Positions 2,545 through 30,926 of a stretch of 32,000 bases of DNA are shown here, piece by piece (position 1 is the first letter of the stretch; each line of letters opens with the position of its first letter). The translations under genes and the position numbers were made by a program. The stretch is taken from NCBI GenBank assembly GCA_050872465.1, contig JBNMGX010000004.1:2155-34154 (forward strand), read 5' to 3'. The notes beneath the pieces are model-generated. The model worked only from the letters and a program-made list of their open reading frames with translations. It was not told where the DNA came from and searched no databases. The stretch is from Hallerella sp. (GTDB lineage: Bacteria > Fibrobacterota > Fibrobacteria > Fibrobacterales > Fibrobacteraceae).

Positions 2545-2553
2545 AAATCCTCC

Positions 2554-9536: not shown

Positions 9537-11150
9537 CTATATTGTAGAATTCCAGGAATAAGCCCCATAGGATGATTGACACGAATAGGTCTTGCCGCCT
9601 ATCGAAATACTACTATCCGGGTTCTGAAACGAGCATTCTTCCCACCGAGAACCCGAACATAAAAGCTGGATAACATCCTTTCCGCATGCTTTTTGAAATT
9701 CTTCGCTCGTTATTTCTTCGCCGCCCAAGTATTTCATCATAATATCCTCGTCTAATTCAGCACACTCTTCAATTCCGGCGGTTGTTCGCGCAAGAAAAGC
9801 AATCTCTCCGGCATTGGCGGACGAACACTGCGTACCGGTAGGCGAATCATCTTGCACATTCTCGTTTACCTTCCATTTGCCGGCAGAACATACGAAGAGA
9901 TCGACAGCCTTGTCTGTCCATTCGGGCGTCGTCGGACAAGGCGTTCCCTCGACAGGAGCCGAAAGCGACCACCAGTTGTTTGCCTTGCAATACCAGTTTT
10001 TCTTGATTTCCCCCTCTTTGCCTTTTACGCAAACAGCCTGCAGCTCCCGTTCCGTTTCAAACGGAATGTCCGTCAGACTGAAACCGGGCGTACCGCAGGA
10101 CACATTCATAACGGCATCGGCAAGCTCCCTGTTTTCATAGCCAGCGAGGCGAATGTCAAAAACGACGCCAGTTTCGTAAAATCTTCCAGATATACTCGGT
10201 TTTTTCTTAAAGAACGCCAGATAAGGATTGTCCGCATCATGAATCCCGAGCAAAGTCGGCAGATTGTCGAAATCTTCGTCGGCTAGCGTGCCAACGGATT
10301 GAACAAGCTTATAGTACAACCACATAGAGGAATCCGCAGAGTTTACGTCCGCATCAATGCTTAACCGCAGAGCGTCCTTTGAATAGAGGTAGTACAATTC
10401 CGTCGTCGAAGATTCACTGAAGCACTGCGAAATCATCCCGCCATCGCATGGCATGGACAGGAGCCTATCCGGAGTATCCCGGATGATTTGGAGCACAGCT
10501 CGATTTCCTTTGGAATCCACCATTTGCAAATGAATATCCAGCTGAAAGTTTTCCTCGTCGCATTCAAAATCCAGTGTCACAAGGCTGTCTTCTATGATGG
10601 TACAGACAGGATCAGACATCGCTGTCGAATCTTTGCAGTAAACCGACGCAATCCCTTCTCGAGATGCAATCGGGCTTTCGCAGACACCTTTCTTGAACTG
10701 CTGTTTTTTTTCTTCGGCCCCCTCTCCAAGATACATTCCACCTTTGTAGGAGACCTTGTAATGGAGGATTCCGTCTTGCGCATAGATTTCATCCTTGTTT
10801 ATATGGTCGTCGCATGTAAAAATGTTTTCCCTTTGGGAAACAGAGGACGAAGAAACAGAGGACGAACTCGCAACATTTTCCGAAGAACTAGTTCCGTCTT
10901 TCCTGGCAGAGCTGCTCGATCGATTCGCTTGGGAAGTCGAGTCTTTTTCAATCCATTCGCCATTCTTGCAGACATACTCAATTCCGGATTCCTCGTCCAT
11001 TCTGGTTTCCGAATCTAAATCCGCAGTGCATTTCGGCATAGATTCCGAAAGCGGCGGTTTGCTCGACCCCGAAGAATCGTCCCCGCATGCTACGAACCCC
11101 GCTAGCGGGAATAAGGCGATACCGAACAGTTTCGAAACGTCAATTTTCAT
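9537..11150 (-). CDS. Ser-rich, Cys-rich secreted lipoprotein of unknown function
   Basis: 537 aa. The signal peptide has a lipobox (LFPLAGFVAC), followed by a Ser-rich linker (SSSSARKDGTSSSENVASSSSVSSSSVS). A short C-x-x-G-x-W-type module recurs (YVCKNGEWIEK, WYCKANNWWS, FVCSAGKWKV, LLCSGSRWEE). Confidence 0.7.
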   Translation of the reverse strand: MKIDVSKLFGIALFPLAGFVACGDDSSGSSKPPLSESMPKCTADLDSETRMDEESGIEYVCKNGEWIEKDSTSQANRSSSSARKDGTSSSENVASSSSVSSSSVSQRENIFTCDDHINKDEIYAQDGILHYKVSYKGGMYLGEGAEEKKQQFKKGVCESPIASREGIASVYCKDSTAMSDPVCTIIEDSLVTLDFECDEENFQLDIHLQMVDSKGNRAVLQIIRDTPDRLLSMPCDGGMISQCFSESSTTELYYLYSKDALRLSIDADVNSADSSMWLYYKLVQSVGTLADEDFDNLPTLLGIHDADNPYLAFFKKKPSISGRFYETGVVFDIRLAGYENRELADAVMNVSCGTPGFSLTDIPFETERELQAVCVKGKEGEIKKNWYCKANNWWSLSAPVEGTPCPTTPEWTDKAVDLFVCSAGKWKVNENVQDDSPTGTQCSSANAGEIAFLARTTAGIEECAELDEDIMMKYLGGEEITSEEFQKACGKDVIQLLCSGSRWEECSFQNPDSSISIGGKTYSCQSSYGAYSWNSTI

Positions 11151-11401
11151 AGAACCTCTTTTTTTTGTTGCATTTTATTACAAAATTACATTCAAATTTA
11201 ATTTTGCGGGCATTCATCGTCAAACAAATCCAATTTTAATCAAAAAAGCAAAAAAAACATCGAAAAACGAAAAGTTGTCGCCGACGATTCTTACAACTTC
11301 GCAAAAGCGTTCAACGGGAGCGGAGGATTTCGACATCGCCGATCAGCCTAGGGGAGTCGTAAAGCAGGCCGAGTGGAAACGGAATCGCTATCGGCGATAA
11401 T

Positions 11402-16246: not shown

Positions 16247-16409
16247 GATGGTAAAATAAATCTTTTTCGGTGCGAATTATGCAGGGAAATGCGGATAAAG
16301 TTTTTGTTGTACTATTCCTGATCCGAAATTCTGGCTTATATGACATTTGGGTACCTAGATTCTTTCTAACCCATTGTCATTCTTGACGTTAGAGTAGATT
16401 TTTCTTTTT

Positions 16410-17192
16410 ATGGGAAAAATCTGCTTTTTTTGTGGTAGAAACGACGTAATAAAGAAAGGGTTGAAGAACGGGAAACAACGCTGGTTTTGCAAAGCGTGCG
16501 GCAAGTTTTTTTCGTCCCGAAAGCGCGCGGACAAGAAAAGGATGATCGAACTCTATACCCAGGGAAACTATACAGTACGACAGCTTGCCTCCTTGTTCGG
16601 CTTTTCGGAAAGAACCGTATATCGCTCATTGCAAAGGTACTCAAACAACAGCTCGGCAAGACCTGTCCAGAAAGATATTGTCGCCATGATGGACGCTTCC
16701 TATTGGGGCTGGAATTTCGGCGCCGTCGCCACCAAGGATCACGTTTCGGGAGTTGTCCTCTGGCATAAATTTATCGACCGAAAAGAACGGACCGGCGACT
16801 ATGTTGAAGGAATCCTGGCTCTTGAGCGACAAGGTTTCACGATACGCGGCATCGTAAGCGACGGACTGAAAGGCTTGCGGGACAGGCTATCCGCCTATCG
16901 TTTCCAATACTGCCAGTTTCATCAAGTAATGACCGTAAAACATAAATTGACCAACCATCCGAAGTTGGAGGCGTCAATAGAGTTGCTGGACATTGCGAAG
17001 CTTCTATGCCATACAGACAAAGAATCTTTTGCGGGAATTTTGAACGACTGGCGTGCAAGATGGGAATCCTTTCTTAACGAAAGAACTACCGATGAAAAGG
17101 GAAGATCTTTCTACACCCACAAAAACCTGAGAAGTGCGTATCATAGCCTTAAACGGAACATGCATTCAACGGTTCATCTGTTATTGGGTTAA
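16410..17192 (+). CDS. transposase-like protein (N-terminal zinc ribbon + HTH + DDE-like core; IS1595/IS1-like, family uncertain), probably 3'-truncated
   Basis: CFFCG...WFCKACGKFF forms a zinc ribbon and TVRQLASLFGFSERTVYRSL an HTH. Candidate catalytic acidic residues are MMDASYWG and IVSDGLKG, followed by THKNLRSAYHSLKRNM. The ORF stops only 8 aa after that last motif. No terminal inverted repeats were found. Confidence 0.5.
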   Translation: MGKICFFCGRNDVIKKGLKNGKQRWFCKACGKFFSSRKRADKKRMIELYTQGNYTVRQLASLFGFSERTVYRSLQRYSNNSSARPVQKDIVAMMDASYWGWNFGAVATKDHVSGVVLWHKFIDRKERTGDYVEGILALERQGFTIRGIVSDGLKGLRDRLSAYRFQYCQFHQVMTVKHKLTNHPKLEASIELLDIAKLLCHTDKESFAGILNDWRARWESFLNERTTDEKGRSFYTHKNLRSAYHSLKRNMHSTVHLLLG

Positions 17193-17255
17193 TCCCCAAA
17201 GAGAGTTTACGAAGATAGCTTTCAGCATGTTCCAAAATTTCTAATTCGGTCGCCA

Positions 17256-18296
17256 TTATTTCCCTCTATGTTCCGCTTCGCTTTCGATTTCTCGCAGTTC
17301 GGCCATATCCGCTTCATCGGCTTCAATCGCGTCCTGCATTTTGCGGCGTTCGGCAAAAGCATCGTAAATTTCGGACACGTGAGCTTCCATCTGCTTATTG
17401 GAGATATGTCCCTTATCTCGCAAGACACCCTTGTTTTGGAAGTTCAGCAGGGCATCGACATTGTTTCTCCAAAAGTCCAGAGTCAGGTCCTTACGTTCCT
17501 TAACTCGCAACTCTGCAGAGTCCAAAAAGAGAACCGTAAGACGATTCAGCGAATCAATCTCGTCGTGCGAAAGGTAATTCTTGGCAATGAAAATATCTTG
17601 CTTGCGAACCACCGTACCATGCCATGCCGTTAAGCCCATATTCGGTTTTTGGGCATCTGCTCGATCGCATATAATTTCTGCAGCAGTTCTGTTGGCTACG
17701 GCATAAAGCAGTTTGTTCTGTGTTTCGGCAAAGAACATTTGGGTTGCCTTGTCTGACGCATCGTAATCGCTACTTAGGGCAAGCAAATCTCGAACCTTCT
17801 GATAGAAACGCTTTTCAGAGGCTCTGATATCACGAATGCGCTCAAGAAGTTCATCGAAATAGTCTGGACGTCCATCGGGATTCTTAAGACGATCATCATC
17901 AATATCAAACCCCTTAATCATGAACTGTTTAAGGTGTTGATTCGCCCAAATGCGGAATTGGACGCCCCGTTTGCTCCGGACTCTAAAACCGATGGCCAAA
18001 ATCATGTCCAAAGAGTAAAAAAGGACCTTATAATTCTTACCGTCTTCGGCAGTTGTAAAGTAATACTTTACAACTGAATTTTCATCTAACTCCTTGTCCT
18101 GCAAGACATTGGCGATATGCGCACCTACATTTTGCTTTGAGGTGTCAAAAAGTTCTGCAATCTGATTTTGATTCATCCATACATTGCCGTCTTTGGCCAT
18201 TAAGGCGACTTTCGCCTTGCCATCAAGGGTGTTATAGATGATAATGCTCTGCTCAACTTTTCCCGCAGAGCCTTTATTTTCGTCTTTTTTCGCCAT
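17256..18296 (-). CDS. RhuM-family (virulence protein RhuM-like) protein
   Basis: 346 aa. IIIYNTLDGKAKVALMAKDGNVWMNQNQIAELFDTSKQNVGAHIANV...LAIGFRVRSKRGVQFRIWANQHLKQFMIKGFDIDDDRLKNPDG...DYFDELLERIRDIRASEKRFYQKV is a very typical RhuM-family sequence. Confidence 0.85.
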   Translation of the reverse strand: MAKKDENKGSAGKVEQSIIIYNTLDGKAKVALMAKDGNVWMNQNQIAELFDTSKQNVGAHIANVLQDKELDENSVVKYYFTTAEDGKNYKVLFYSLDMILAIGFRVRSKRGVQFRIWANQHLKQFMIKGFDIDDDRLKNPDGRPDYFDELLERIRDIRASEKRFYQKVRDLLALSSDYDASDKATQMFFAETQNKLLYAVANRTAAEIICDRADAQKPNMGLTAWHGTVVRKQDIFIAKNYLSHDEIDSLNRLTVLFLDSAELRVKERKDLTLDFWRNNVDALLNFQNKGVLRDKGHISNKQMEAHVSEIYDAFAERRKMQDAIEADEADMAELREIESEAEHRGK

Positions 18297-18380: not shown

Positions 18381-19824
18381 TCAATATTCCCTCAATTCCT
18401 GGATAAGTTTTATTTCAATCCCAGCCATTTTCTCTGAGAAATCCTTAAATGACGCCGTGTTTTGCGGGATGGGAATGCCAATTGCTGAAATTTGGCCACC
18501 CTGTCCTAATGCTTTCTTGGGGCGTGATTGAAGAACCGTTTCATACTGATTGTTTTTGTTCTCGATTGGAAATAGCAATATTGCCTTTTTCGCGGGAATG
18601 CAGTGTATGTAGGCGAGCATTTGGAAAAGATCGTTTCTTCCCATGCAAACTTTAAAACCTGTATCGTTATCAAAAGTGTCGGTTTCGTCATTTTCCGATA
18701 CATTTGCAAATCTTTTATATTTTGCATCAAGAACGATACTTTGATCAATCGCCTGATTGCGACGGTAAAAATCCGGATAATATGTTCCACCGTTTTCAAA
18801 GAGTCTGATGCCATTTTGTTTGAGGCGGTTGTTGGAATGGACAAAGCCCAATTTGGCCTTGTCGATTACCGTTGCCAGGTATTCTTCCCAAAGACTGGCA
18901 CCGTCAAAAAGAATTCCTCCGATGAGTTTGGAATCTTCGCCATAGCTTAGTTTTTTGTGAAGTAGAATCGAGAGGCAAAGAAGTCGCAATGGTTCGTAGG
19001 CGGTGTAGTACGGATGCGTTATCCGGCGCAGATTTTTGGAGATAATCTGATTCCGGGCGTTTTTATTATAGGATTCCGTCACCTGTTCAATCGCTTGAAC
19101 ATTGTCGCGAGTTTTGCCGGCGATACCACCACCCAGAACCGCTCTGCCGCAAGGCAGGGATGTGTTCGATGGTATGGCGCACAAGTTGCGTCACGTTGTT
19201 GTCGGTGGTGTATTCTCGCGTGTGGTACGCGACCTTGCCATTAAAGGGAATGTTGTAACGGATGTGTCGGTTGATATCTATCGGGCCGCGGACATTGGCG
19301 TCGTTGTATTCACGCGTCACGTAAGCGCGATAGATGCCCTGCTTTATGGACTGATTCAAATAGTTCGGGAAAAGATAAAAGAGAAAATCGTAAAACTGAT
19401 CTTCGCCAGAATTGGTTTCGGGAACGTAGGCTATATTGCAGACCTTTTGCAGCATATAGTGCAAAAAGAAATTCTTGTCGGCATCGTCGAAACGAGACGA
19501 AATGCACATGTGCACATTTTTGCCCAGGCCCAGAAAGCCCATCACGTTCCCTGTCCGGAACTTGGGATTTTTCGTTTCTTTATCTACAAGCGAATAGATG
19601 AAATCCTTGTCGGCAAGGTCCTTTTCGCCCGCGGTAAACGGGAACACGAGAAACTTGCGAACGTCGAATTCCTTTTTCGAAAGATCGCTTAACGAGAGAC
19701 CGTCAAAACTCAGCAAAGCGTCTTTCTCTTCGCCTTCGTAGGCGTGAGACTTTTCATTTTTTTGAACAGCCTCGTCCCATTTTGTGAGATTGTTGACCTG
19801 ATTATCTTTTAAAGAGATGAGCAT
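18381..19824 (-). pseudogene. mcrC: McrC-like 5-methylcytosine restriction subunit, split by a frameshift
   Basis: Two overlapping minus-strand ORFs (19087..19824 and 18381..19184) together make one McrC-sized protein. The total span of 1444 nt is not a multiple of 3. The N-part is McrC-like (LISLKDNQ...FYDFLFYLFPNYLNQSIKQGIYRAY). The C-part carries the PD-(D/E)XK nuclease motif (YYPDFY...IVLDAKYK). It starts 2 nt after the mcrB stop. Confidence 0.7.
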
Positions 19825-19826
19825 TG

Positions 19827-21734
19827 TTATTTCTGTTCACTGGCTTTAAGATTGTACGCATCCTCAAGCTTTTTCAGCAAAATGCCACTTGCATCGTCAA
19901 TTCCGCGAAGGTATTCGCGAACAACGCCCTTGATGTGGTAATCCCACAGTTTTTCAAACGCTTCGTCATCATTACTTCCTTTGAAGTAATTGGCGAATTT
20001 AAGGAAGTATGCCCCGCCAATCTGGTAATCCTTGCCCAGATGGAATTCTTCATCAAGGATAGCTTTGTTCAGATTATCCATTCGATCTATGATTGCCTGG
20101 AGATGCGCGGACACGTCAATGGTTTCATCTGATCCATCGGCATTTTTCTCGCCAGTCTTCCAAGACTTTCCATCTCCAAACATATTTTTTCGACTCTGTT
20201 CGGCAGTTATTTCTTCAAAGGCGAATCTACGACGCATAGCAAAGTCCATACTTTCGACACTTCGGTCGATGTCGTTCATTGTACCGATGATATAGACGTT
20301 TTCCGGAACGAAGAAGCCATTTGCAAAAACATCCTCTTCATCAATTAGATTTTGATACTGGGTATTTATTCGACCTTTCTCTCCGCGATAACCAGGATCG
20401 ATCGCGTAAAACAGTTCTCCAAATATTTTGGATATTTCTCCACGATTGATTTCATCGATGATAAAGACAAATAGCTTGGCTTTTGAAGATAATGCACTTT
20501 TGCAGAATTTTTTGAATGCGCCATCTTTGTATTCAAAACCGTCTGCTTTTCCATCTTGCCCTTTTGCGGGTCTCAATCCTTCTACAAAATCAGTATAGTC
20601 ATACGATTGGTGGAACTGAACCATTTTCCATTCGGCGCCCATTGACTCTGCAATCTTTTTAGCAAGATATGTTTTCCCAGTTCCTGGAGCTCCGTGGAGA
20701 ATGATGTTGTGATTGTTCTTCAGAAAATCAACGTAATTCATGTAATCTACTTCCATAGCATTATCCTCCTTGTCTTGCGGGCCATCCATCTCCAGCTTAT
20801 CTTTTGCGAATTTGATTAAGTCATGTAACTTGTCACTGCATTCTTGCAATGTCTTGCGATACTTGCCATACATATTTCCATCGAAATCAATTTCTGGTGA
20901 AACGCGGACCCAATCGACATCACAGCTAAACCAGTGTGGACGAGTTGAATCTTTCGCCTCCATATTAGATGTGGCACAACCAACGCCATAGACCTTTATA
21001 AAAGGAAGGTCGTGTTTAGATCCCTTTGTAGAACATGTGGCCGCGATGATGATATCGCCGATTTTAACCTGCTTAATATACTTTTCGGTATCGCATTCGC
21101 CACCTTCCCAATATCCGTCTTTTACGAAGGTGTCGATCATGTTTTGACGTGGTTCACCGAAACTTGTCCCTGCAATCCAAATCCGCTGCATTTCTGCAGC
21201 GTAACTGAAAGCCGCATCAGAGAACTCGTAGAAATTGTGGTAGGACTTATCGCCACTATTAAGGAGTTCTTTAACTTTTTTAGCAGCATTCTCATACACC
21301 GCGTAGGAAACTGAATTGTCACGCAACTTTAAGCCGCTTTCCTTATTAAGAAAAATTCGAGAAAGACTGTCCATTGGCGGATATTCATTGGGCTTCATCC
21401 AGAAAAATGCATAAGTCAAATTCCACTTGACGCCATTCTTTTTCTGAGCCTCATCAAAATGCTCGGCAATCTTGGCGGAATCGTTCTGCATAAAGGCTTC
21501 AAACAGGTTCCACAGTAATGGAATTGTCTCCAACTTTTCATTTTCGTAGTAGAAACAGGATTTCTGTGCATTGCTGATGGGGAGCCCTTCAAAGTCGTCC
21601 GGGACAGGCGCTACAATTTCAAATTTCGCTTTAAGAGCCTTAATCATTTCCTGGCGTTTCTCAACACCAGAGGAACGGTTAAATATTGCAAAAACAGTAA
21701 ACGGATCGATATCGCGAAGAATTCCGTCGGACAC
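19827..21734 (-). CDS. mcrB: McrB-family AAA+ GTPase restriction subunit (largest intact ORF; the true N-terminus at 21875 is cut off by an in-frame TGA)
   Basis: Walker A ILHGAPGTGKTY (about 20670-20700), FIIDEINRGEISKIFGELFYAIDPGYRG and IIGTMNDIDRSVESMDFAMRRRFAF are McrB/GTPase AAA+ signatures. The tool start is a GTG. The same frame continues upstream as MAKFTWIPFYEEFAKKLLDYKD...SLDAE-TGA-IGFLTAK from an ATG at 21875 with a GAGGG RBS. Confidence 0.85.
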   Translation of the reverse strand: MSDGILRDIDPFTVFAIFNRSSGVEKRQEMIKALKAKFEIVAPVPDDFEGLPISNAQKSCFYYENEKLETIPLLWNLFEAFMQNDSAKIAEHFDEAQKKNGVKWNLTYAFFWMKPNEYPPMDSLSRIFLNKESGLKLRDNSVSYAVYENAAKKVKELLNSGDKSYHNFYEFSDAAFSYAAEMQRIWIAGTSFGEPRQNMIDTFVKDGYWEGGECDTEKYIKQVKIGDIIIAATCSTKGSKHDLPFIKVYGVGCATSNMEAKDSTRPHWFSCDVDWVRVSPEIDFDGNMYGKYRKTLQECSDKLHDLIKFAKDKLEMDGPQDKEDNAMEVDYMNYVDFLKNNHNIILHGAPGTGKTYLAKKIAESMGAEWKMVQFHQSYDYTDFVEGLRPAKGQDGKADGFEYKDGAFKKFCKSALSSKAKLFVFIIDEINRGEISKIFGELFYAIDPGYRGEKGRINTQYQNLIDEEDVFANGFFVPENVYIIGTMNDIDRSVESMDFAMRRRFAFEEITAEQSRKNMFGDGKSWKTGEKNADGSDETIDVSAHLQAIIDRMDNLNKAILDEEFHLGKDYQIGGAYFLKFANYFKGSNDDEAFEKLWDYHIKGVVREYLRGIDDASGILLKKLEDAYNLKASEQK

Positions 21735-21904: not shown

Positions 21905-22705
21905 TTATATACAATCAATATAGAATAAAATCCCTTTCGTCACCTCTTCTACATCAATCCCTAGCCAGTTTTTGCCGGATGTTGACAATCGTTTCAAGTA
22001 GGCCTTGTCGCTGAAAACCTGTTCTAATCTTTTTACGACGTCGGCAATACTGTTTTCGCGCATTTGATTGTCACTGAAAATATACGCATCTAAACACTTG
22101 AGAAGATTCGTCTTGTTCGCAACACCGGAAAGATAATAAAGGTCAAACACATCCTTAAAGCGTGTTGAGAAACTCCCGAATTTCAGAAGCGAACGCAATT
22201 TTTCTGCGAACATCTGTTCGCTAGAATTGATTAAAAGACAGGCACCCTCACTATCGAGAGCGATATCGAAACAAAACATTTCCTGATCAATATCCAATCG
22301 GCTATGGACGCCTAAGTCAATTTTGCTTTGAATTTTATTTCCGTTGGAATCTGCAATTTCAATGTGAACGCGTTTCCCCTTGTATTCCTGTTGCTTCAGT
22401 TCCTCGATGGAGCCGAATCGCTTAATCGTTATCCCCTCAAGTCGCCCCATACTTGCTATAAAAATATCAATAGCCGAATCAGTGAGCGGATAACGTAAAA
22501 AATCAATGTCTAGGTCCTGCGTTGCACGGCGAACATTCTTCGTTTTGCTCCTCATTACAACGCCACCCTTGATTGTCACATTTCGCGACAAGGGACCCGA
22601 GGCAATGGCCTTCAAAACAATGTCCTGACACACCTTTGCGCGTGCGTTTAAATCACTATAGCCCAGCGCAATCTCCGCTTGAACCATCTTGGCAATATCC
22701 ATCAT
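21905..22705 (-). CDS. AbiEii/AbiGii-family nucleotidyltransferase toxin (type IV TA)
   Basis: 266 aa. ALGYSDLNARAKVCQDIVLKAIASGPLSRNVTIKGGVVMR...ATQDLDIDF is a typical AbiEii N-terminal NTase motif. Its start overlaps the stop of the upstream AbiEi gene (TGATG at 22703-22707). Confidence 0.8.
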   Translation of the reverse strand: MMDIAKMVQAEIALGYSDLNARAKVCQDIVLKAIASGPLSRNVTIKGGVVMRSKTKNVRRATQDLDIDFLRYPLTDSAIDIFIASMGRLEGITIKRFGSIEELKQQEYKGKRVHIEIADSNGNKIQSKIDLGVHSRLDIDQEMFCFDIALDSEGACLLINSSEQMFAEKLRSLLKFGSFSTRFKDVFDLYYLSGVANKTNLLKCLDAYIFSDNQMRENSIADVVKRLEQVFSDKAYLKRLSTSGKNWLGIDVEEVTKGILFYIDCI

Positions 22706-23370
22706 CAGAAAACCTCCAGCTGTAGGGCCTTGTTTATCATGCCTGCTTTGGGGAAGTTTTCAAGATATTCCTGCATCGATTGCAAATCTAGATCACCGAT
22801 GATTTTTCGGTAGTTGCCGATGATTTCTTTGTAGTAGTCGTAAGGGAGGTTGTTCTTGTGGCGGATCAGCTCCAGGAGCATCCGTTCTTTATTGTAGATA
22901 TTGATCTGTGCGTCGGCGTAAAGCATCGTTGTTGCGCCGAGGCGTAAAACATCTTCCTTTTCGAATTTTTGGACAACCCGCGAATCGGCAATTTTCTTTG
23001 CCCCGCTTGTTGTATTCAGGAAGATTTTATCGGGAATGGAATCTGTCAGTCCATGGCAATAAAAAGCCGTATTTAACGTTATCACGCCCTTGGGATACTT
23101 GGCCGCAACAATAGCAATATCCGACTCGTTTTTCCGGTCAGAATACACGCCAGGCTCCAGCTGAAAGATAACGCCCTCAGCAACAGCCCTCTTTACAAGG
23201 TACTTGGAACCAAACCGTTCTATGCACTGTTCGTAAGTCCGTATCATTTTGCCAAAGGTATGTAAAATATTTGATTTTACCGACTTTTGGTTAAAAATAG
23301 TCTTTTTTAAGGCAAGAATCAAGCCTATCAGAGGCAATTTGCTCATTTTCATCTCCTTCCTCGCCGACAA
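22705..23370 (-). CDS. AbiEi-family antitoxin/transcriptional regulator (type IV TA)
   Basis: VKRAVAEGVIFQLEPGVYSD...AIVAAKYPKGVITLNTAFYCHGLTDSIPDKIFLN matches AbiEi_4-type antitoxins by eye. The true start may be the internal ATG at 23247 (MIRTYEQ...), since the first roughly 41 codons look non-homologous. Confidence 0.75.
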   Translation of the reverse strand: MSARKEMKMSKLPLIGLILALKKTIFNQKSVKSNILHTFGKMIRTYEQCIERFGSKYLVKRAVAEGVIFQLEPGVYSDRKNESDIAIVAAKYPKGVITLNTAFYCHGLTDSIPDKIFLNTTSGAKKIADSRVVQKFEKEDVLRLGATTMLYADAQINIYNKERMLLELIRHKNNLPYDYYKEIIGNYRKIIGDLDLQSMQEYLENFPKAGMINKALQLEVF

Positions 23371-23445: not shown

Positions 23446-24207
23446 TTAGTAAGAAACTTTCTTTCCATCTGGGGCAATCGTCAGCGCTTTTGCGGCATGC
23501 AGTGCGTCAATCAGTTTTTGAATATTGTCCTCAGAGATCTTTTCCGCCTTAAACCAAGTCTTCAAGGAATTGTGTAAACCGCTCTTTGTTGTCGGAGCGT
23601 TCTTTTTCATATCCTTCAAAAGTTTCTTGGCTTTAGCAACAGCCTTGTTTAAATCAAAAGCCGGTTGCTTGGGTTTCTGCGCTTTTGAAGCAGGCTTTGC
23701 AACGGTTTTAGAAACTTTCTTAGCCGGAGCAGGTGCCGATTGCGCAGAATTATTCAACGTAACACCTAGACGCTTTGCCAAGGCTTCGTAAGAATCTATG
23801 CGCTCGCAGCGATTTTCGCCAAATTCCTTTTGAACATGCAGAATCAACGGGTCATAATCGTGATCCTTTGAAAGAATCACGCAATGACTGTTAAATGGCT
23901 CGCGAGGCATTACTTGACCCATATAGAACGCGATATAGAAATCCAACGCGTTTTCCGCCTGTTTCTTGGTCATGTTTTCCGGAATAGACAGTGCGACTGT
24001 TTTAAGACGGTCCTCGTTCATCGCAAAGCTTAAATCTTTTAATTGATTCAAGGGAATGTCTTTTAGCTTATTGTTTGCGTTATGGAACAATACGAACTTG
24101 ATCGGGCTTCCGTCCGTTTGAACAACCAAATCCAGCAAACCGCTTAAACCGACATTTTCACAATCGATTAAGACATGGGATATGGGAAAGTTTTCTTTTG
24201 CTGCCAT
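23446..24207 (-). CDS. NYN/PIN-like (LabA-like) domain protein with Lys/Ala-rich linker and small helical C-terminal domain
   Basis: ISHVLIDCENVGLSGL...FVLFHNANN...HCVILSKDHDYDPL has the D-x-E-N ... D-x-D acidic pattern of NYN/LabA-type PIN-like nucleases. A low-complexity linker (APAPAKKVSKTVAKPASKAQKPKQP) follows. The ATG at 24207 is preceded by AAGGAG. The ORF is open to 24258, but that extension (MIFFFRIRIV) looks spurious. Confidence 0.55.
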   Translation of the reverse strand: MAAKENFPISHVLIDCENVGLSGLLDLVVQTDGSPIKFVLFHNANNKLKDIPLNQLKDLSFAMNEDRLKTVALSIPENMTKKQAENALDFYIAFYMGQVMPREPFNSHCVILSKDHDYDPLILHVQKEFGENRCERIDSYEALAKRLGVTLNNSAQSAPAPAKKVSKTVAKPASKAQKPKQPAFDLNKAVAKAKKLLKDMKKNAPTTKSGLHNSLKTWFKAEKISEDNIQKLIDALHAAKALTIAPDGKKVSY

Positions 24208-24466
24208 TATTTTTCTCCTTTTTTTCATCACTATGCGAATGCGAAAGAAAAATATCATATTGTCCTAAAGGAAACCAATCCTTAATTACTTTAGACAGAT
24301 CAACTTCATTAGAGCTTTCGGGGAAATGGTATTCATCTAATTTTCTTTCAACTTCATCCTTTTTCCTATTCGCAATTTTGTATCCACTTTTCGCACACTT
24401 TTCTAAATCAAAATCCTTTATCCCGTAATTTTCTATTTTACTTATTTTTAAGAAATGTTCAATCAT
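24158..24466 (-). CDS. N-terminal fragment of a TIR-domain protein (probable remnant)
   Basis: The ATG at 24466 has a strong GGAGGTGA RBS. About 70 aa of leader are followed by YDIFLSHSHSDEKK (TIR beta-A/alpha-A start, as in the paralog at 25155..25757). The frame then runs into the RBS and start of the next gene and stops at 24158, so no TIR fold can be completed. Confidence 0.5.
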   Translation of the reverse strand: MIEHFLKISKIENYGIKDFDLEKCAKSGYKIANRKKDEVERKLDEYHFPESSNEVDLSKVIKDWFPLGQYDIFLSHSHSDEKKEKNNGSKRKLSHIPCLNRL

Positions 24467-24470
24467 ACAA

Positions 24471-25115
24471 TCACCTCCTCCTAACAAGACTCTTAGTCCT
24501 CACTGTATCAATAATTTGAATATTCATTTTCTTCAATTCATCAATTTTCAAAATTAACGAATCTATTTTTTCTAAATTAATTTTCATAGAATCAAATTCT
24601 TTCAACTTTACTTCTAAAGGTATACCATCTTTTTCATTGGTTACTTTTATCTTTTGCGTATCATCTCCATTTATACAAAATGATACTACTGACAAGATTA
24701 AAGTACCAACAAGCATGCATCCATAAAAAGGTCCAATACTAGGAGATTTCAAAACTTCTTTGAAAGATTCTTTGTCTTTATAGTCTTTTATAGATGTGCT
24801 ATACAAAGAAACAACTTTTGGCGGTTGATTATCATTCCCTATTTTAACAACATCTTTATACAAACGCCGAAAGCGGCGCTCCAGTTGTAAATAGAACACA
24901 TCTAAGTATCCAAAAAGAATAATAACTAATATCGTAATAGTACATAACCAAGGAATATTCACTGTAAAAGATATTCCAACAACTCCGGAAACCAAAGCAA
25001 TACACCATTCTTTCATTTGCTTTGAATTTTCACTCATTCTGGTTATGATAGCTTCAACAATATCAATATGTTGTCTTTTTTCTTCTTTTTCATCAGGTCT
25101 TGTTGTGTCACTCAT
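24471..25115 (-). CDS. 3-TM membrane protein with C-terminal coiled-coil-like tail, unknown function (candidate effector)
   Basis: 214 aa. Hydrophobic segments are WCIALVSGVVGISFTV, IPWLCTITILVIILFGYLDVFYL and IGPFYGCMLVGTLILSVVSFCI. A conserved-looking YLQLERRFRRLYKDV lies after TM2. The tail is heptad-like (KINLEKIDSLILKIDELKKMNIQII). It is co-oriented and tightly packed with the TIR genes. Confidence 0.6.
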   Translation of the reverse strand: MSDTTRPDEKEEKRQHIDIVEAIITRMSENSKQMKEWCIALVSGVVGISFTVNIPWLCTITILVIILFGYLDVFYLQLERRFRRLYKDVVKIGNDNQPPKVVSLYSTSIKDYKDKESFKEVLKSPSIGPFYGCMLVGTLILSVVSFCINGDDTQKIKVTNEKDGIPLEVKLKEFDSMKINLEKIDSLILKIDELKKMNIQIIDTVRTKSLVRRR

Positions 25116-25154
25116 TATCGACTCCTTTTTTTTGACGCTACAATACGCCTTTTA

Positions 25155-25757
25155 TCAACGTAAATACGGATTGCATCCTTTAAGCCATTCTTCAAAAATT
25201 ATATAGTGTCTTTCGTCATTATTCACCCACAGAGCATTTCGGCCTTTATCTGTTTTAGTTTCAGAAATATAAGGATATATCCCTAAATATTCTTGTCCCC
25301 GATAAACATCACTTTCATATACCTCTCTTGTTAAAGGGCATACAGCAACTCTATCTTTTAATCCATCCATTAATCCTAATTCCCAAGGCATCCACTTTGA
25401 TTGTGGAGCATTCTCTGATGTTACATAAAAAAGACATTTACAATTTCTCATTCGAAATTTTATAGTCTTCGCCGTTTCCTTTGTCACACGAAAACGATTC
25501 AAGTTTTGGTCTTCTATCCAGTCAACATATATTTCGTAATGATATTGTCTTTTCAAATATTTTACCAATCCTGCAACAGCCACTCGATCCTTATAACTAT
25601 GAGACAGAAAAATGTCATATTTTTTCTTTTCATCATACCGAGAGAAACATTTCATTTCCGATTCTAATAATACAGCCTCATCAATAGCGTATTTTGATGC
25701 AACAACGCGATTTTCTCGAGCAATAGACTCAAATCGATCAATATTAAATAAAGCCAT
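25155..25757 (-). CDS. TIR-domain protein
   Basis: 200 aa with YDIFLSHSYKDRVAVAGLVKYLK (beta-A/alpha-A), YEIYVDW (beta-B), CLFYVTSENAPQSKWMPWELG (beta-C plus the catalytic-Glu helix W-x-x-E). Confidence 0.8.
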   Translation of the reverse strand: MALFNIDRFESIARENRVVASKYAIDEAVLLESEMKCFSRYDEKKKYDIFLSHSYKDRVAVAGLVKYLKRQYHYEIYVDWIEDQNLNRFRVTKETAKTIKFRMRNCKCLFYVTSENAPQSKWMPWELGLMDGLKDRVAVCPLTREVYESDVYRGQEYLGIYPYISETKTDKGRNALWVNNDERHYIIFEEWLKGCNPYLR

Positions 25758-25760
25758 TCT

Positions 25761-26255
25761 TTAACCTCTTGCCTTAATTGCTTTTTCAACCCATTCTTCT
25801 AAATGTTCTGCAATGTCATTGTATGCATCGTTAGGATTTGGGTTATAACATGGTACCACAGAAGATAATGGATTACCATTTTCAAAGAATATTTTATTAA
25901 AGGGGTTATCACCCATATTAGAGTACCCCGAAAAACCTCGCCGACAAAACAAAGGATCTTTTATACGATGGATATATATTCCAAAAACACCCATTCCCTT
26001 ATTCCATGCTCGCCGAATTTCGTAGTCAACCCAAGGTCTTTCTGAGGTATATTCCCCCACAAGAACTATCAAACACGAGCGATACAGCATATTAGCATCA
26101 ATCCAACGACGAATGGCCTCGTCTCCGCCTCGTTTTACCATTTCCCATTCATTATCGGATACAGATTGATTTCCTTCTACGGCACCGATATTTCGCACTT
26201 GTGCTGCACGACGAGAGTCTTTTTCGTAGTGAAAACTATAAAAAACCTGACGCAT
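25761..26255 (-). CDS. TIR-like domain protein (DUF1863 / ThsB-like)
   Basis: 164 aa. The pattern VFYSFHYEKDSRRAAQVRN...CLIVLVGEYTSERPWVDYEIRRAWNKGMGVFGIYIH is characteristic of MTH538/DUF1863 TIR-like proteins, the class used by many Thoeris ThsB proteins. Confidence 0.75.
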   Translation of the reverse strand: MRQVFYSFHYEKDSRRAAQVRNIGAVEGNQSVSDNEWEMVKRGGDEAIRRWIDANMLYRSCLIVLVGEYTSERPWVDYEIRRAWNKGMGVFGIYIHRIKDPLFCRRGFSGYSNMGDNPFNKIFFENGNPLSSVVPCYNPNPNDAYNDIAEHLEEWVEKAIKARG

Positions 26256-26256
26256 T

Positions 26257-27177
26257 TTATTCCTCCTTCTTTTGACATGTTTTATATAGCCAATTTAAGG
26301 ATTCTTCCCATTTTTCTAATTTTGGATATTGCTGATTACGATTATATAAAGGTTTTAAAGCTGGAGCATAGCATCTATTTGAACAACATGATTGCCACTT
26401 TTTCAAATCACCTATGTTTAGATGAAATAGATTGTCTAAATTTACTGGATATGACACTTTAAAAGGTTCTTGATTCACGGATGCATTCACTTGACTTTCG
26501 AAAAGAGATTTACGAGGAAGTGATTTTCGAACTTTATCATTCACTCTAATTGTATCTACCGTAGCCAATTCATGAAAAATCCACGGAGAAAATGTTGTAT
26601 CAGCAGAGGCACTTAATGTTATTGATTCATCTGATTTTAGAAAAAAGAAACATTCTGTAGAATCAATCATACGTGTTAGTGCATTGCACAACAGCATGTG
26701 GACATGTGCAGTGCTATAATTTCTGTCAGACGCACTATAAGTAGTCTTTAAAAATTTTCGTTTGTCATCCTTATCAATATGTTCTCCCGTCTGGGGATCA
26801 ATTCTGCAAAAATCGAAGTCAACTTCTTTTTGGAGATCACTGATACACCCCCATAAATCAGAGTCAATAAAGGAATTTATTTCAAAATTTGATTTCAACC
26901 AATGGGCGAATTTTCTAGCTTTATCAACATTTTGACTTGAATGAGATAAAAATACATGGCATTTTACATCAGATGGAAAGAATAGCTTTCTGATTGAGTC
27001 GCCATCTAAAATGTTAATAAATTTACCATCTTCATCTTCTCTTTCAATACAGCCATCCAATATTAAATCTTTTAGCAAGTCTTTTAGGTTATTATTTTCG
27101 TCATAAAGAGATTCAGATGATTCTTTTTCTATTAGCGAATCAATATCGTTTAAGTCAATTGCGTATGCTCTAAACAT
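26257..27177 (-). CDS. TIR-domain protein with about 70-aa N-terminal extension, an internal insertion and a C-terminal extension
   Basis: 306 aa with HVFLSHSSQNVDKARKFAHWLKSNFEINSFIDSD (beta-A/alpha-A/beta-B), ECFFFLKSDES...FSPWIFHELA (beta-C plus W-x-x-E helix). About 60 aa are inserted between beta-B and beta-C, and a roughly 100-aa C-terminal region is unassigned. Confidence 0.65.
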   Translation of the reverse strand: MFRAYAIDLNDIDSLIEKESSESLYDENNNLKDLLKDLILDGCIEREDEDGKFINILDGDSIRKLFFPSDVKCHVFLSHSSQNVDKARKFAHWLKSNFEINSFIDSDLWGCISDLQKEVDFDFCRIDPQTGEHIDKDDKRKFLKTTYSASDRNYSTAHVHMLLCNALTRMIDSTECFFFLKSDESITLSASADTTFSPWIFHELATVDTIRVNDKVRKSLPRKSLFESQVNASVNQEPFKVSYPVNLDNLFHLNIGDLKKWQSCCSNRCYAPALKPLYNRNQQYPKLEKWEESLNWLYKTCQKKEE

Positions 27178-27194: not shown

Positions 27195-30100
27195 TTACCT
27201 ACTTTCCACGCTTGCGATTTCTTCTTCGCTGAAGTCGCCATACAGTTTATACACGAGGGTATTCACTTCACTTTCGAGTGCAGCGATGTCGCGCTGAGCA
27301 GCCTCTACAGCGCTTGGTTCCGCGGAGTCTGCGCCATCGGTGCTAGATTTTTTGAGGGCGATGATTTCATCGGCGAGGGTGGCGAGTTGGTGGAGGATTT
27401 CCTTGTTATCCAGGGGGATGCGGAGGTTTTCGAAGTAGGCTTTGCGGATTTCGCGAGTGCCGCCCATGAGTTCTGGGCAATTGTACCAGATCCAGAGTTT
27501 GCAAAGATTCGAATTGAATATGGCGAGGAGGGCCTTGAGAAGGTCTTCGCTAAATTCTTCGACTTCGCTTGCGCTGCGCTCAGAATGACGCATCGTAATC
27601 ATAAATGTTTTATCATTGCCGAGTGATCCTGTTTCGTCAAAGCTGAACGGGAAAACTGAGGTCATATTAGGGTAAACAATTTTTGGCTTTGCAAATTCCT
27701 TGTAATAATCTGCACCCCAACGCTGCAACGCATACCATTCGTAACGAATGCCAGTTTCTGCCTTATTTCGGGCAGAAAGTTGTTCTTTATAACCAAGCAA
27801 ATGATTGTAAATGGCTGGTTTTTGAACTTTGAATTCTGATTCAGATTGCTCTGAAGCCCCATTGATTAAAGGGTTTAAATGATTTGGGTAATGCCATGGA
27901 ACGAACAGCATATATTGATCATCCTTTTCGGTAACCCATGCTGTAACATCTCTCCCGCGAAGCAGGGGCTTTATGAGTTCTTCGCTCTTGGGATCTTCTG
28001 CAATCAATTTTTTTCTTGTTTTCTCGTCGATAAAGAAAGCCTCATTATATCCGGTTTTCAAACCGTAATTAATTGCAATCGGCATTTCCCTGAGCGGTGT
28101 TCCGTGATTCATTTTCTGCAGCACGGAATCATGGAGTTTATTGCGAATACTCCATTCCTTTTCACCAAATGTTTCGGGAGAAAGTTCAAACAATGCTGCA
28201 TTTACTTCTTTTTTAAAATCGCCAAAATAGTTCCTACTATTTAGCGTACAAGCCTGCACGGGCGTTTTTGTATCAGATTTTTGTGCGACAAAAATACATA
28301 CAATAGTCGCCGCATCAGCAAAAAATTGAATATCGCCAAAGTTCAGGATTTTCTTGAGCGAGGTCTGGCTCATAAACTCTCGCAATTCCTTGCCGTAATC
28401 CACCAGCATCCACTTGTTGGGCATGATAAAGCTGAAGTAGCCGTTCTTTTTCAAAAGGCTGTGGGCGCGTTCTACAAATAGGCAATACAGATCCGCCGAC
28501 TTGTTGTAGCAAGTGTAGCCGCGTTCGCCGTAAACGTCGCTCATGGCGCCCATGCTCTGCAACTGCACATAGGGCGGGTTCCCGATCACGGCATCGAATC
28601 CCACGAACTTTCCTTCGTCATCCAAGATTTCGGGGAACTCGAACATCCATTCCAGCGAGTTCGAAAAGTCGATGTCGCTTGCTTGCGATACGTTGCCCCA
28701 CAGGTCCACAACGGGGGGCTCCTTCAGCTGGGCCTTGAGAGCGTTGATGTTCAGGCGCAGTTGTCGCTTGTCGTAGGCGGTGCCGCCCTTCTTGTAATTC
28801 TGGACGCTTTCGCGATATTCCTTGAGCCTTGCGGCAAGCCCGCTCTTTTTGTCGGCTTTATCTCCCTTTTGCAAAAAGTTGAGAACCACGCGATTGTTTT
28901 GCACGGGGTACTTGCTCAAGAGCGAATCGCCCACCTTGATGTTGATGTCGATATTCGGGAGCGTTTCGAGGCGTTTGAAGTCGCTTTCTTCGGTGTAGTA
29001 GGCGTTCTTCAACAGTTCAATCCACAGGCGCAAACGGCAGATGTTTACGCTGTTGGGGTTCAGGTCCACGCCAAAGAGGCAATTCTCGATGATGTTCTTC
29101 TTTTCTTTGAACAGGGCTTCTTGAATGCGTTGGCGTTCTTCGTTGCCGGGCTTGTATTCAAAGGGTTCGTTGTCTTCGTCCACAACGGAGAGCTCGTCGT
29201 TGTCCACTTTCAGGCGGTAGTCGGCGCGCTTGATGCGCTTGCCCTTGGTGTCGCAGAAAATGTTCAGGTCCGATTTGATGGCGAGCATGCGGTTCAGTGC
29301 CGAAACCAAGAAATGCCCGGAACCGACGGCGATGTCGGCCACGCGCACGCTATCCACAATCTGGTTCGCGTCCTGCACGTCGTCGATTTTGTCGGCCACG
29401 TCTTCAAGGTCCTTACAATCCCAGTTCTTGACGTCGTTGAATTTTTGCACCACCGTTCTTTCGAGCACGTCTTTCGCCATGTAGTCGGTGATAAAGCCCG
29501 GGGTGTAAAAGCTGCCGTCCTTGTAGCCGTTGATCTTTTCGAAAATGAGTCCCAGCACCGACGCGTTAATGAGCGTCTTGTTGGTGTTGGTCACGCCACC
29601 TTGGGCGTCGCTTGCAAAGTTGTAGGCGTCCAGGAATCTGAAAATATATTCCAGATTTTGCATGGTGCCTTTTGCGCGTTTTCCCTTTTCGTCCTTGAGA
29701 ACGGTCTTGTTAAAAATTTCGATTTGGGCGTCGGGGATTCCGCAGATCTTGAGGCGGGATTCGTCTTCGGTGGGCTCGAAGAGCGAGCTGTTCAAATACG
29801 GCACGTTCGGGTATTTTTTTAGAACGTCCTCGTCGCGGGCGTCAATCTTTTTACCCAGGACCTTGAAAAAGAAGATGTTCAGTTCGTCGAAACTGCCGAT
29901 CTTGTCGAGGCTCATAAAGCGGTACGCAGGGTCGCCCTTTTGGTACATCAGGATCTGCGATTCCACAAGCTTTAGGAATAGCAGGCGGTTCACCCAGGTG
30001 ATGCAGAGGCGGAGCGCCATGGCTTCGCACTTTTCCGCGTCGTTTACGTCGTCTTCTAGCTGGTAGATGGCGCTTTCGAGGAGGCTTGCCTTGTCGCGGT

Positions 30101-30926
30101 TCTTGGGCTGTTTGCGGCGAATGACCTTTTTGCCGCCGTCCTTGACTTCTTCGAGGCCGATGATGTGCAGGAGTTCTGCGTAAAAGTTCTTGTCTAAGCT
30201 GTTGCTGTCGTTGGCGAAGGGCTTTGCGAGGAGCGTTTCCGGCGAAAGGAACTTGTAGAGGGCGATGAGCTTCTTTTCGTCGCTTTGCTCTGCTGCTTTT
30301 GCCGCTTCCGCTAAAGAAAAATGAACAACAGAAAATTCACAGTTGGCGAGAAAGTCGTCGATTGCCGGCTTTGCGATGTCTTTGTAAAAATCAGAGGTCT
30401 TGTTCCCGCTCATTTGTTGCGCGGTGAACTTCTGAAACTGATCGTAAATCGGATTCGATTTTTGGGCAAAGTAACGGATGAAGTCTTTTACGTCAAAAAA
30501 GTACCATTCGTCAAAATTTGAAATCATCAGGTATTTGATTTCACGATTTTCCCGACGAATGTATTCGAGCATAAAGTAGTACACCAGTTCCTGCAACGCT
30601 TTTGAATTGGGATGTTCTTTGGAAAACATCTCTGCTGTGTTGCTCGGCGACTTCATTTCGATAATGACCGCCGGCTTGGCTTTGGTGTCGTTGCCGTTGT
30701 AAATGGCGAGGTCGATCGGGTTCGTTACCTGTACGGAATAATCAGGATTGAATATCTTCTTTAAGAAGCTCCAAACTTCACCCTTGTGGTATTCTTCGTC
30801 TTGATTTTCGTTGCGCCTTTTGTACAGATTCTTCAAAGACGCAGTGAACCGCTCCATCTTTTCGAACGAAACCGGCAATTTTAAAAATGCAGAATTGACA
30901 GACTTCTTGGGCGAAATGAAGTTCAT
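27195..30926 (-). CDS. type IIG restriction-modification enzyme (PD-(D/E)XK nuclease + gamma-class N6-adenine DNA methyltransferase + TaqI/Eco57I-like C-terminal specificity domain)
   Basis: 1243 aa. The N-terminus IDLAIY...AVIIEMKSP gives D...E-x-K (ExK at 30651-30659). SAM motif I is DIAVGSGHFL (29307-29336) and catalytic motif IV is IGNPPYVQ (NPPY at 28569-28580). C-terminal GLKTGYNEAFFID...LIKPLLRGRDV and the tail LVYKLYGDFSEEEIASVE are typical of Eco57I/TaqI-like TRDs. Confidence 0.8.
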   Translation of the reverse strand: MNFISPKKSVNSAFLKLPVSFEKMERFTASLKNLYKRRNENQDEEYHKGEVWSFLKKIFNPDYSVQVTNPIDLAIYNGNDTKAKPAVIIEMKSPSNTAEMFSKEHPNSKALQELVYYFMLEYIRRENREIKYLMISNFDEWYFFDVKDFIRYFAQKSNPIYDQFQKFTAQQMSGNKTSDFYKDIAKPAIDDFLANCEFSVVHFSLAEAAKAAEQSDEKKLIALYKFLSPETLLAKPFANDSNSLDKNFYAELLHIIGLEEVKDGGKKVIRRKQPKNRDKASLLESAIYQLEDDVNDAEKCEAMALRLCITWVNRLLFLKLVESQILMYQKGDPAYRFMSLDKIGSFDELNIFFFKVLGKKIDARDEDVLKKYPNVPYLNSSLFEPTEDESRLKICGIPDAQIEIFNKTVLKDEKGKRAKGTMQNLEYIFRFLDAYNFASDAQGGVTNTNKTLINASVLGLIFEKINGYKDGSFYTPGFITDYMAKDVLERTVVQKFNDVKNWDCKDLEDVADKIDDVQDANQIVDSVRVADIAVGSGHFLVSALNRMLAIKSDLNIFCDTKGKRIKRADYRLKVDNDELSVVDEDNEPFEYKPGNEERQRIQEALFKEKKNIIENCLFGVDLNPNSVNICRLRLWIELLKNAYYTEESDFKRLETLPNIDINIKVGDSLLSKYPVQNNRVVLNFLQKGDKADKKSGLAARLKEYRESVQNYKKGGTAYDKRQLRLNINALKAQLKEPPVVDLWGNVSQASDIDFSNSLEWMFEFPEILDDEGKFVGFDAVIGNPPYVQLQSMGAMSDVYGERGYTCYNKSADLYCLFVERAHSLLKKNGYFSFIMPNKWMLVDYGKELREFMSQTSLKKILNFGDIQFFADAATIVCIFVAQKSDTKTPVQACTLNSRNYFGDFKKEVNAALFELSPETFGEKEWSIRNKLHDSVLQKMNHGTPLREMPIAINYGLKTGYNEAFFIDEKTRKKLIAEDPKSEELIKPLLRGRDVTAWVTEKDDQYMLFVPWHYPNHLNPLINGASEQSESEFKVQKPAIYNHLLGYKEQLSARNKAETGIRYEWYALQRWGADYYKEFAKPKIVYPNMTSVFPFSFDETGSLGNDKTFMITMRHSERSASEVEEFSEDLLKALLAIFNSNLCKLWIWYNCPELMGGTREIRKAYFENLRIPLDNKEILHQLATLADEIIALKKSSTDGADSAEPSAVEAAQRDIAALESEVNTLVYKLYGDFSEEEIASVESR

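Follow-up and report, generated by a model that had tools for sequence, protein, structure and literature searches.

The stretch of Hallerella sp. DNA analysed here (Fibrobacterota; contig JBNMGX010000004.1, positions 2,155 to 34,154; 32,000 nucleotides (nt), hereafter the window) carries at 24158-27177 a compact cassette of genes for TIR-domain proteins and one small membrane protein. Judged by homology and gene order, this cassette is very probably a type V Thoeris anti-phage system, in which three intact ThsB sensors from three TIR clades accompany a single membrane effector, ThsF, and which has been truncated at its 3' end. Type V, one of the Thoeris types I-XI set out by Yirmiya et al. 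(bioRxiv, Dec 2025; 10.64898/2025.12.03.692087), consists of ThsB and ThsF; the latter has three membrane-spanning helices, is annotated DUF2270 and was modelled as a channel-like homo-heptamer (10.64898/2025.12.03.692087). Type V systems confer defence on B. subtilis; on infection their ThsBs synthesise 3' cyclic ADP-ribose (3'cADPR), and a ThsB and ThsF pair is sufficient for defence in the published systems (10.64898/2025.12.03.692087). The original prediction had read these genes as an undescribed, effector-less and non-canonical relative of Thoeris. This did not hold, as the membrane protein belongs to the ThsF / PDC-M50A family, which makes it a homologue of a known effector from a described Thoeris subtype, and forms with one of the TIR genes the pair that PADLOC calls PDC-M50. 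The architecture has already been described, as PDC-M50 in PADLOC-DB (2023) and as type V Thoeris (Dec 2025), and the cassette is a multi-sensor copy rather than a new system.

Five minus-strand genes are packed across 24158-27177 in the list of open reading frames (ORFs), namely thsB-A, thsB-B, thsB-C, thsF (gene D) and a stub, E (Table 1). The ORF coordinates give intergenic gaps of 1 nt (A/B), 3 nt (B/C), 39 nt (C/D) and 4 nt (D/stub), in keeping with the tight packing first proposed, and the GC content, 0.32-0.36 over 24-27 kb where the flanks have 0.42-0.54, agrees with its description as an AT-rich operon. An alternative TTG start would extend the stub to 24158..24487; public gene callers choose the ATG, giving 102 amino acids (aa). 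As had been expected, a Pfam scan found no SIR2, SLOG, Macro, SAVED, caspase or nuclease domain inside the cassette, and NCBIfam returned nothing meaningful for any of its proteins. A promoter and terminator consensus scan over 23.3-27.4 kb gave counts no higher than those in shuffled sequence.

The classification turns on gene D. Its 214-aa product, the sole non-TIR partner, had been put forward as a protein with three transmembrane (TM) segments, and this is confirmed by hydropathy (hydrophobic segments at 36-55, ~56-79 and 127-151) and by the AlphaFold2 (AF2) model, which has helices at 7-52, 56-89 and 128-149. The predicted local distance difference test (pLDDT) exceeds 90 for residues 11-150 and falls to 46-68 in a C-terminal extension. 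The ThsF / PDC-M50A domain spans residues ~8-149 and comprises an N-terminal amphipathic helix, TM1 (~37-53), TM2 (~56-76), a charged loop and TM3 (~127-149). Neither Pfam nor NCBIfam has a match to D, which matches all four PADLOC PDC-M50A models, the best at 2.6e-28. With a family profile built from D and 26 close homologues, 4225 representative proteins were found at an expect value (E) <= 1e-3, mostly of 130-160 aa, the length of the 3-TM domain alone; PDC-M50A was matched by 78 of the 79 sequences scanned (D and 78 of the relatives found by the profile). The invariant residues of this superfamily that are present in D are R26, N30, S31, K35, D72, Y75, E79, Y86, S124 and Y131.

The link to an experimentally validated system is provided by B. 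thuringiensis (Bt) DAR 81934, whose type V ThsB (Table S1/S2 of Yirmiya et al.) is our sequence P0174, at 100% identity. The gene 14 nt downstream of this ThsB encodes a 141-aa protein with three hydrophobic segments (L012:4773..5198), which would be the Bt ThsF. It matches PDC-M50A at 1.8e-48, and hhalign aligns the superfamily profile of D to it with 99.9% probability (E 2.5e-34, 135 columns, D residues 8-147). Since D and the Bt ThsF share the PDC-M50A match and align so closely by hhalign, D is, by profile comparison, a ThsF homologue. On this evidence PDC-M50 also corresponds to type V Thoeris, because the validated Bt ThsF itself matches PDC-M50A; a literature search on the name PDC-M50 found no paper. 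Of the three explanations offered originally, a membrane effector gated by a nucleotide that the TIR proteins make is thus the one that the apparent ThsF homology favours.

Other identities considered for D were rejected: no profile match supports a SLATT, Macro, SLOG, SIR2, SAVED or caspase reading, SLATT being absent from D and its relatives even at E <= 10 and Macro from D and its 26 homologues. Foldseek, run with the AF2 model of D against the PDB, returned nothing better than E ~1, only generic helical bundles and ESCRT-III/Vipp1. Separately, the Bt ThsF weakly matches 8xMP, an octameric membrane protein family (E 0.012), as do 2 of 79 relatives, and the two families may be distantly linked.

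The only unusual feature of the cassette is the C-terminal extension of D, ~65 aa that follow TM3 (residues ~150-214; window 24471..24665). It is conserved in a ThsF subfamily of ~26 sequence clusters, with the consensus KIKLTNE...PL.V..KEFDSLKI...KIDSLI.KIDELK.MN.QI.DTVKTKSL, whereas most of the 4225 superfamily representatives end directly after TM3. The AF2 model of the extension is of low confidence apart from one helix (182-196), and the extension is probably extracytoplasmic if the N-terminus lies inside the cell.

The three TIR products fit this effector. The protein encoded by thsB-A has no Pfam match and matches the PADLOC ThsB model PDLC00430 over its full length (3.2e-53). It carries the beta-A motif HVFLSHS and a putative catalytic Glu, E203, in SPWIFHEL, an assignment suggested by the motif and by family conservation: F76, S78, H79, W199 and E203 are invariant in alignments of a family that includes validated ThsBs. 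BLASTP against Table S1 relates it to two validated ThsBs, one of type IX from B. cereus VD021 (35%, 4.8e-42) and one of type V from B. thuringiensis DAR 81934 (33%, 2.1e-36). Its AF2 model has a pLDDT of 81, and a sequence search of the PDB gave spurious matches only. For thsB-B, the matches are to Pfam PF08937 (ThsB_TIR, 4.7e-25), to the PADLOC models ThsB PDLC00433 (1.2e-65) and PDC-M50B (1.3e-56), and to PDB 8WCF (7e-46). Its putative catalytic residue, E79 in RPWVDYEI, aligns with the Glu of WVRYEI in the B. cereus protein BcThsB (6LHY / 9B7D), which is E85 by sequence count, and BLASTP relates it to type XI ThsB (37%) and to TIR2 of type III (41%). The third sensor, thsB-C, matches Pfam TIR_2 (5e-7), the PADLOC model ThsB PDLC00422 (1e-53) and the TIR protein of PDB 8BTN (8.4e-47), with the WMPWELG motif aligned, including the putative catalytic E126 of SKWMPWEL; its beta-A motif is YDIFLSHS. 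In Table S1, BLASTP finds it 53% identical to a type IX ThsB (P. macerans), 42% identical to a validated type V ThsB (Bacillus sp. 1NLA3E) and 38% identical to TIR1 of the P. aeruginosa L0872 type III system. Pfam (B and C) and the PADLOC ThsB models (A, B and C) thus agree with the three divergent TIR products of the original prediction, and the TIR motifs and W-x-x-E glutamates lie where it had placed them. A putative catalytic Glu is conserved in all three ThsBs.

The sensors are old paralogs by sequence comparison, as had also been proposed, because pairwise BLASTP between A, B and C finds no significant similarity (E 0.015-0.43) and the YDIFLSHS motif is written in different codons in thsB-C (TATGACATTTTTCTGTCTCATAGT) and in the stub (TATGATATTTTTCTTTCGCATTCG). 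Their sequence matches assign all three to ThsB clusters for which Yirmiya et al. list type V, IX, XI and III systems. Table S1 gives A-type TIRs the label "DUF2270 - Type V" throughout and places the B-type (2661146773) and C-type (2612357774) clusters beside DUF2270 / type V effectors; in one validated type V system the sensor is a C-type ThsB (10.64898/2025.12.03.692087).

We envision that, on infection, at least one ThsB would convert NAD+ to an ADP-ribose-derived signal, which in the A- and C-type clades is most likely 3'cADPR, and that this signal would bind positively charged pockets of a ThsF oligomer, formed by the conserved N-terminal helix (R26, N30, S31, K35) and the helix after TM2 (D72, Y75, E79, R80, R83, Y86). 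The ThsF ring, opened or assembled by the signal, would then disrupt the membrane and abort the infection, and several divergent ThsBs feeding one effector would widen the range of phages that can be sensed. For the identity of the signal, the gating of ThsF and the defence that the truncated cassette would retain, we reason by analogy with validated homologues. The TIR proteins might instead be effectors that deplete NAD+, the membrane protein serving as an accessory or a sensor, as many bacterial TIRs act in CBASS, Pycsar, SPARTA and Avs (10.64898/2025.12.03.692087). We consider this very unlikely here: among characterised proteins, those closest to A and C are Thoeris ThsBs that respond to infection by producing 3'cADPR, and this molecule is toxic to cells with the Bt type V system, which exogenous 3'cADPR triggers and the Tad1 sponge blocks (10.64898/2025.12.03.692087).

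Longer relatives reveal what the window form has lost. Two loci, L001 (ThsF 87% identical to D) and L005 (50%), carry a cassette in the order A-type, B-type and C-type ThsB, ThsF, A'-type ThsB, TIR1-like gene, TIR4-like gene and LD_cluster3 SLOG gene. The full-length A'-type ThsB there has 308-309 aa, the TIR4-like gene encodes 360 aa, and the LD_cluster3 match is at 2e-44. The last three genes (L001 9694..12001, L005 9572..11980) resemble, by their sequence matches, a type III Thoeris-like module joined in one operon to the type V module. In L005 a 346-aa protein without Pfam or PADLOC matches (6882..7922) takes the place of thsB-C, which looks like a cassette-position swap.

The stub is the remnant of the A'-type gene. 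It matches PADLOC PDLC00430 (1.1e-11) over profile positions 8-78 of 269, bearing out the TIR stub originally noted. With the N-terminal part of the type V ThsB of Bt it shares 41% identity, and with the full-length genes of 266-309 aa downstream of thsF in L010, L001 and L005 it shares 67%, 49% and 40%, respectively. Only its N-terminal region, up to the beta-A motif YDIFLSHSHSD, is TIR-derived, and the last ~22 codons read foreign DNA. The DNA alignment of the window with L001 is conserved through this motif to GATATTTTTCTTTCGCATTCGCATAGTGATGA and then breaks down at ~24222-24226; beyond the junction come an AAGGAG ribosome-binding site and the ATG of a PIN7 gene at 24207, and the GC content rises from 0.32 to 0.43. 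By this comparison the window holds the 5' part of a longer composite cassette, with ThsF retained and most of the fourth ThsB, two TIR genes and the LD_cluster3 SLOG gene lost. We picture a rearrangement at ~24222-24226 that would have removed these genes and left an unrelated PIN7 gene, with AbiE genes further downstream, abutting the cassette. The original suggestion that the effector was lost with the truncation is borne out in part: measured against L001 and L005, the fourth ThsB is cut and the SLOG module is gone, but the primary effector, ThsF, is still there. The layout is not an assembly artefact, because the same truncated arrangement, including the stub and the PIN7 gene, is found in contigs of at least six independent sequencing runs. 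Near-identical DNA, sought in complete E. coli genomes, gave no match. Cluster member names and locus L020, from an F. succinogenes MAG, indicate a Fibrobacter-like host.

Such a truncation raises the question of whether the rearrangement inactivated the system and left genes on their way to pseudogenisation. The fourth thsB is cut at its beta-A motif, three genes of L001 and L005 are missing, and an intact ThsB lies directly downstream of thsF in all related loci. Decay is nevertheless quite unlikely in our judgement, as A, B, C and D are full-length with their family-invariant residues intact, a ThsB and ThsF pair suffices in the published type V systems, and the identical layout recurs in the independent sequencing runs mentioned above. 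Even less convincing is the earlier proposal that the NYN-like gene at the junction, a PIN7/NYN-like RNase (23446..24207), was recruited as the effector of the TIR signal. PIN and NYN domains are nucleases by their Pfam names, and the gene, on the same strand, starts ~15-20 nt past the junction with a strong ribosome-binding site of its own, so that co-transcription is possible. Yet it lies beyond the junction, where the GC content differs, and none of the other ThsF loci examined has it; it shows no SLOG, Macro, SAVED or CARF sensor match in Pfam, only a Lys/Ala-rich tail, and would stand beside a bona fide effector, ThsF; we regard its recruitment as extremely improbable and the gene as a neighbour, not a part of the Thoeris cassette.

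The association of ThsF with TIR genes extends well beyond this locus. One genome per species was scanned (268 relatives), and the best 80 loci, from many phyla, were inspected with 6 kb flanks; TIR genes were detected by BLAST with a small reference set, so the counts are a lower bound. A TIR ORF lies within 300 nt of the ThsF-like gene in 59 of the 80 loci, on the same strand in 58 of them, and 81 of 88 TIR ORFs fall within 1 kb of the ThsF-like gene. Homologues of the membrane protein thus do recurrently neighbour TIR genes, a check that the original prediction had itself proposed. In six related arrangements at least one A-type ThsB lies directly next to the ThsF gene (6/6), often one on each side, and the further TIR genes vary.

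This last pattern admits a division of labour within the cassette, in which only thsB-A, originally together with the A' copy, would signal to ThsF, and B and C would be orphan sensors of a deleted type III-like SLOG module. B shares 41% identity with type III TIR2, and C 38% with type III TIR1 of P. aeruginosa L0872, the L001 and L005 cassettes continue into TIR1-like, TIR4-like and LD_cluster3 SLOG genes, and ThsF directly touches an A-type ThsB in every related locus. On the other hand, a B-type TIR with ThsF is itself the PDC-M50 pair of PADLOC; the TIR nearest ThsF among the best 80 loci is most often B-like or BcThsB-like; Table S1 lists B- and C-type clusters with type V effectors, a C-type ThsB being the sensor in a validated type V system; and L006, L008 and L010 have C/TIR1-like TIRs beside ThsF with no SLOG gene. 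We hold this division to be possible though rather unlikely; it is in any case compatible with a truncated type V system.

The type V reading also leaves room for a more specific proposal, which we put forward as a speculation and think improbable: the Fibrobacter-type ThsF subfamily could be a distinct type V sub-type, marked by the ~65-aa extension, an A-type ThsB always adjacent and often B/C-type ThsBs, whose one effector integrates chemically different TIR signals. If so, 3'cADPR from A- and C-type sensors and a separate product of type XI-like B-type sensors would feed one ThsF, the extension would equip it with a new element for gating or oligomerisation, and in the full-length relatives a common set of TIR sensors would serve both a ThsF arm and a SLOG arm.

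Compared with the published type V Thoeris, the window shares a small 3-TM effector homologous to the ThsF beside the validated Bt ThsB, ThsBs from the clusters of validated type V sensors, an operonic arrangement in a defence island, and TIR genes that flank the effector (C 39 nt upstream of D, the stub 4 nt downstream). It differs in having three intact ThsBs and a stub rather than one ThsB, a truncated 3' end, the extension of ThsF and a Fibrobacterota host. The correspondence with PDC-M50 (PADLOC-DB v2.0.0, 2023) lies in D, which matches PDC-M50A, and B, which matches PDC-M50B, ~0.65 kb apart with C between them; PDC-M50, however, is a two-gene candidate, and the window adds ThsBs of clades A and C and the stub.

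Among the other types, type III Thoeris of P. aeruginosa L0872 has four TIR proteins and a SLOG effector, ThsD (van den Berg et al. 2024, as cited in 10.64898/2025.12.03.692087). By a comparison through the four TIR sequences of Table S1 only, the likeness is a multi-TIR operon in which window B and C and the downstream TIRs of L001 and L005 resemble TIR2, TIR1 and TIR4 at 36-43%. The relatives L001 and L005 end with the LD_cluster3 SLOG gene, whereas the window has no SLOG gene and has ThsF instead. Type IX (ThsB and the TIR-SLOG effector ThsJ) supplies the best validated match of A (B. cereus VD021, 35%) and the best match of C (P. macerans, 53%), but its TIR-SLOG fusion effector is absent from the window. 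In type II (ThsB and a TM-Macro protein) and type VII (a SLATT effector), a TIR-made signal is likewise thought to activate a membrane-disrupting effector; D, however, has no Macro or SLATT domain and belongs to another family. As for the SIR2-SLOG ThsA of type I, no cassette protein has a SIR2, SLOG or STALD match. Islands with multiple ThsBs and several effectors are known, for example in Psychrilyobacter (10.64898/2025.12.03.692087).

Several observations weigh against assigning the cassette to type V. The validated relatives are only 33-53% identical to the window ThsBs, and structural comparison did not confirm the TIR fold of thsB-A: Foldseek with its AF2 model against the PDB gave nothing significant, TIR-containing SPARTA and TLR1 chains appearing only at E 0.4-0.9, and an hhalign comparison with C covered only beta-A to alpha-A, at 82% probability. 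We infer from its adjacency, its size, its three TM segments and an IMG identifier consecutive to that of the ThsB that the 141-aa Bt gene encodes the effector tested in the paper (IMG 2624526260), and the C-terminal extension of D has no counterpart in the validated ThsF. Pfam PF10028 (DUF2270), the label used in the paper, has no match to D by hmmscan at E <= 10 and matches only 2 of 27 and 3 of 79 relatives of D, weakly (best 5e-4). Because the validated Bt ThsF likewise has no PF10028 match by hmmscan, we treat this as an uninformative limitation of the model; Yirmiya et al. used HH-suite, according to their reference list (10.64898/2025.12.03.692087). The Bacillus sp. 1NLA3E type V system is not triggered by 3'cADPR, and type XI ThsBs, the closest to thsB-B, make an uncharacterised signal (10.64898/2025.12.03.692087), which makes the identity of the signal in the window uncertain. 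Finally, the gene directly downstream of thsF, a ThsB in all related loci and A-type in 5 of 6 arrangements, is truncated here, and the truncation of the A'-type ThsB could impair function.

With these reservations, the locus extends type V Thoeris to Fibrobacterota and documents three TIR clades with one ThsF; it opens no new category. When TIR genes are accompanied by a small membrane protein without Pfam matches, a comparison with ThsF / PDC-M50A should come before any verdict that the cassette lacks an effector, as the Pfam DUF2270 hmmscan misses even the validated ThsF. The passage from the full V and III-like cassette of L001 and L005 to the window form is a natural truncation series, with which one could ask which ThsBs signal to ThsF and if the flanking A'-type ThsB is required.

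Table 1. Coordinates of the cassette, its junction and the neighbouring genes in the window.
Feature	Coordinates	Strand	Description
thsB-A	26257..27177	-	306 aa; TIR sensor, long 'A-type' clade, Yirmiya cluster 2734579397
thsB-B	25761..26255	-	164 aa; ThsB_TIR (DUF1863-type) sensor
thsB-C	25155..25757	-	200 aa; TIR_2 sensor
thsF (gene D)	24471..25115	-	214 aa; membrane effector by homology
Stub E, truncated fourth thsB (A'-type)	24158..24466 from ATG	-	102 aa
Approximate recombination/deletion junction	24222..24226	.	end of homology to full-length cassette
PIN7/NYN-like gene	23446..24207	-	Pfam PIN7 1.4e-12; NYN 2.7e-4, below curated cutoff; 253 aa in public contigs
Type IIG restriction-modification enzyme	27195..30926	-	Pfam DUF7149, DUF7814, Eco57I, TaqI_C; PADLOC REase_MTase_IIG 4e-233
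AbiEi	22705..23370		PADLOC 8.5e-74, no Pfam match
AbiEii	21905..22705		PADLOC 6.9e-117, Pfam 5.9e-15
McrBC-like restriction system	18381..21734		635-aa McrB-like AAA_5 protein, then two overlapping ORFs, 19087..19824 and 18381..19184
RhuM-family gene	17256..18296		
Helicase fusion protein	11402..16246		1614 aa; DEAD/Helicase_C module and UvrD-like helicase module
Protein beside helicase fusion	9537..11150		537 aa; no Pfam match
Protein with weak LptA/LptD_N match	3288..4778		
ABC-transporter ATPase	2554..3291		
rpoN (sigma-54)	1027..2544		

The type IIG restriction-modification gene lies 15-17 nt upstream of the first thsB both in the window, where the distance to thsB-A is 17 nt, and in L005 (1312..5082), the two proteins being 69% identical in aa sequence, which suggests that it forms with Thoeris a conserved, possibly co-transcribed unit. 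On the other side of the cassette, the PIN7 gene has a long Lys/Ala/Pro-rich C-terminal tail with a weak DUF5089 match and is directly upstream of AbiEi and AbiEii, a toxin-antitoxin / abortive-infection pair with a 1-nt overlap, with which it might form a module. In the McrBC-like system beyond, the McrB-like protein has a long N-terminal domain that is annotated DUF8425 in related contigs. Of the two overlapping ORFs, at least the second (18381..19184) has a Pfam McrBC match; two McrBC genes are called in related contigs as well, and McrC looks split or duplicated. The content of 9537..18296 may be another defence system. The left flank (1..9400) is ordinary chromosome with a GC content of ~0.5-0.55, which includes a glycosyltransferase and a Vut_1 transporter besides the genes in Table 1, and the defence island starts at ~9.5 kb, where the GC content drops.

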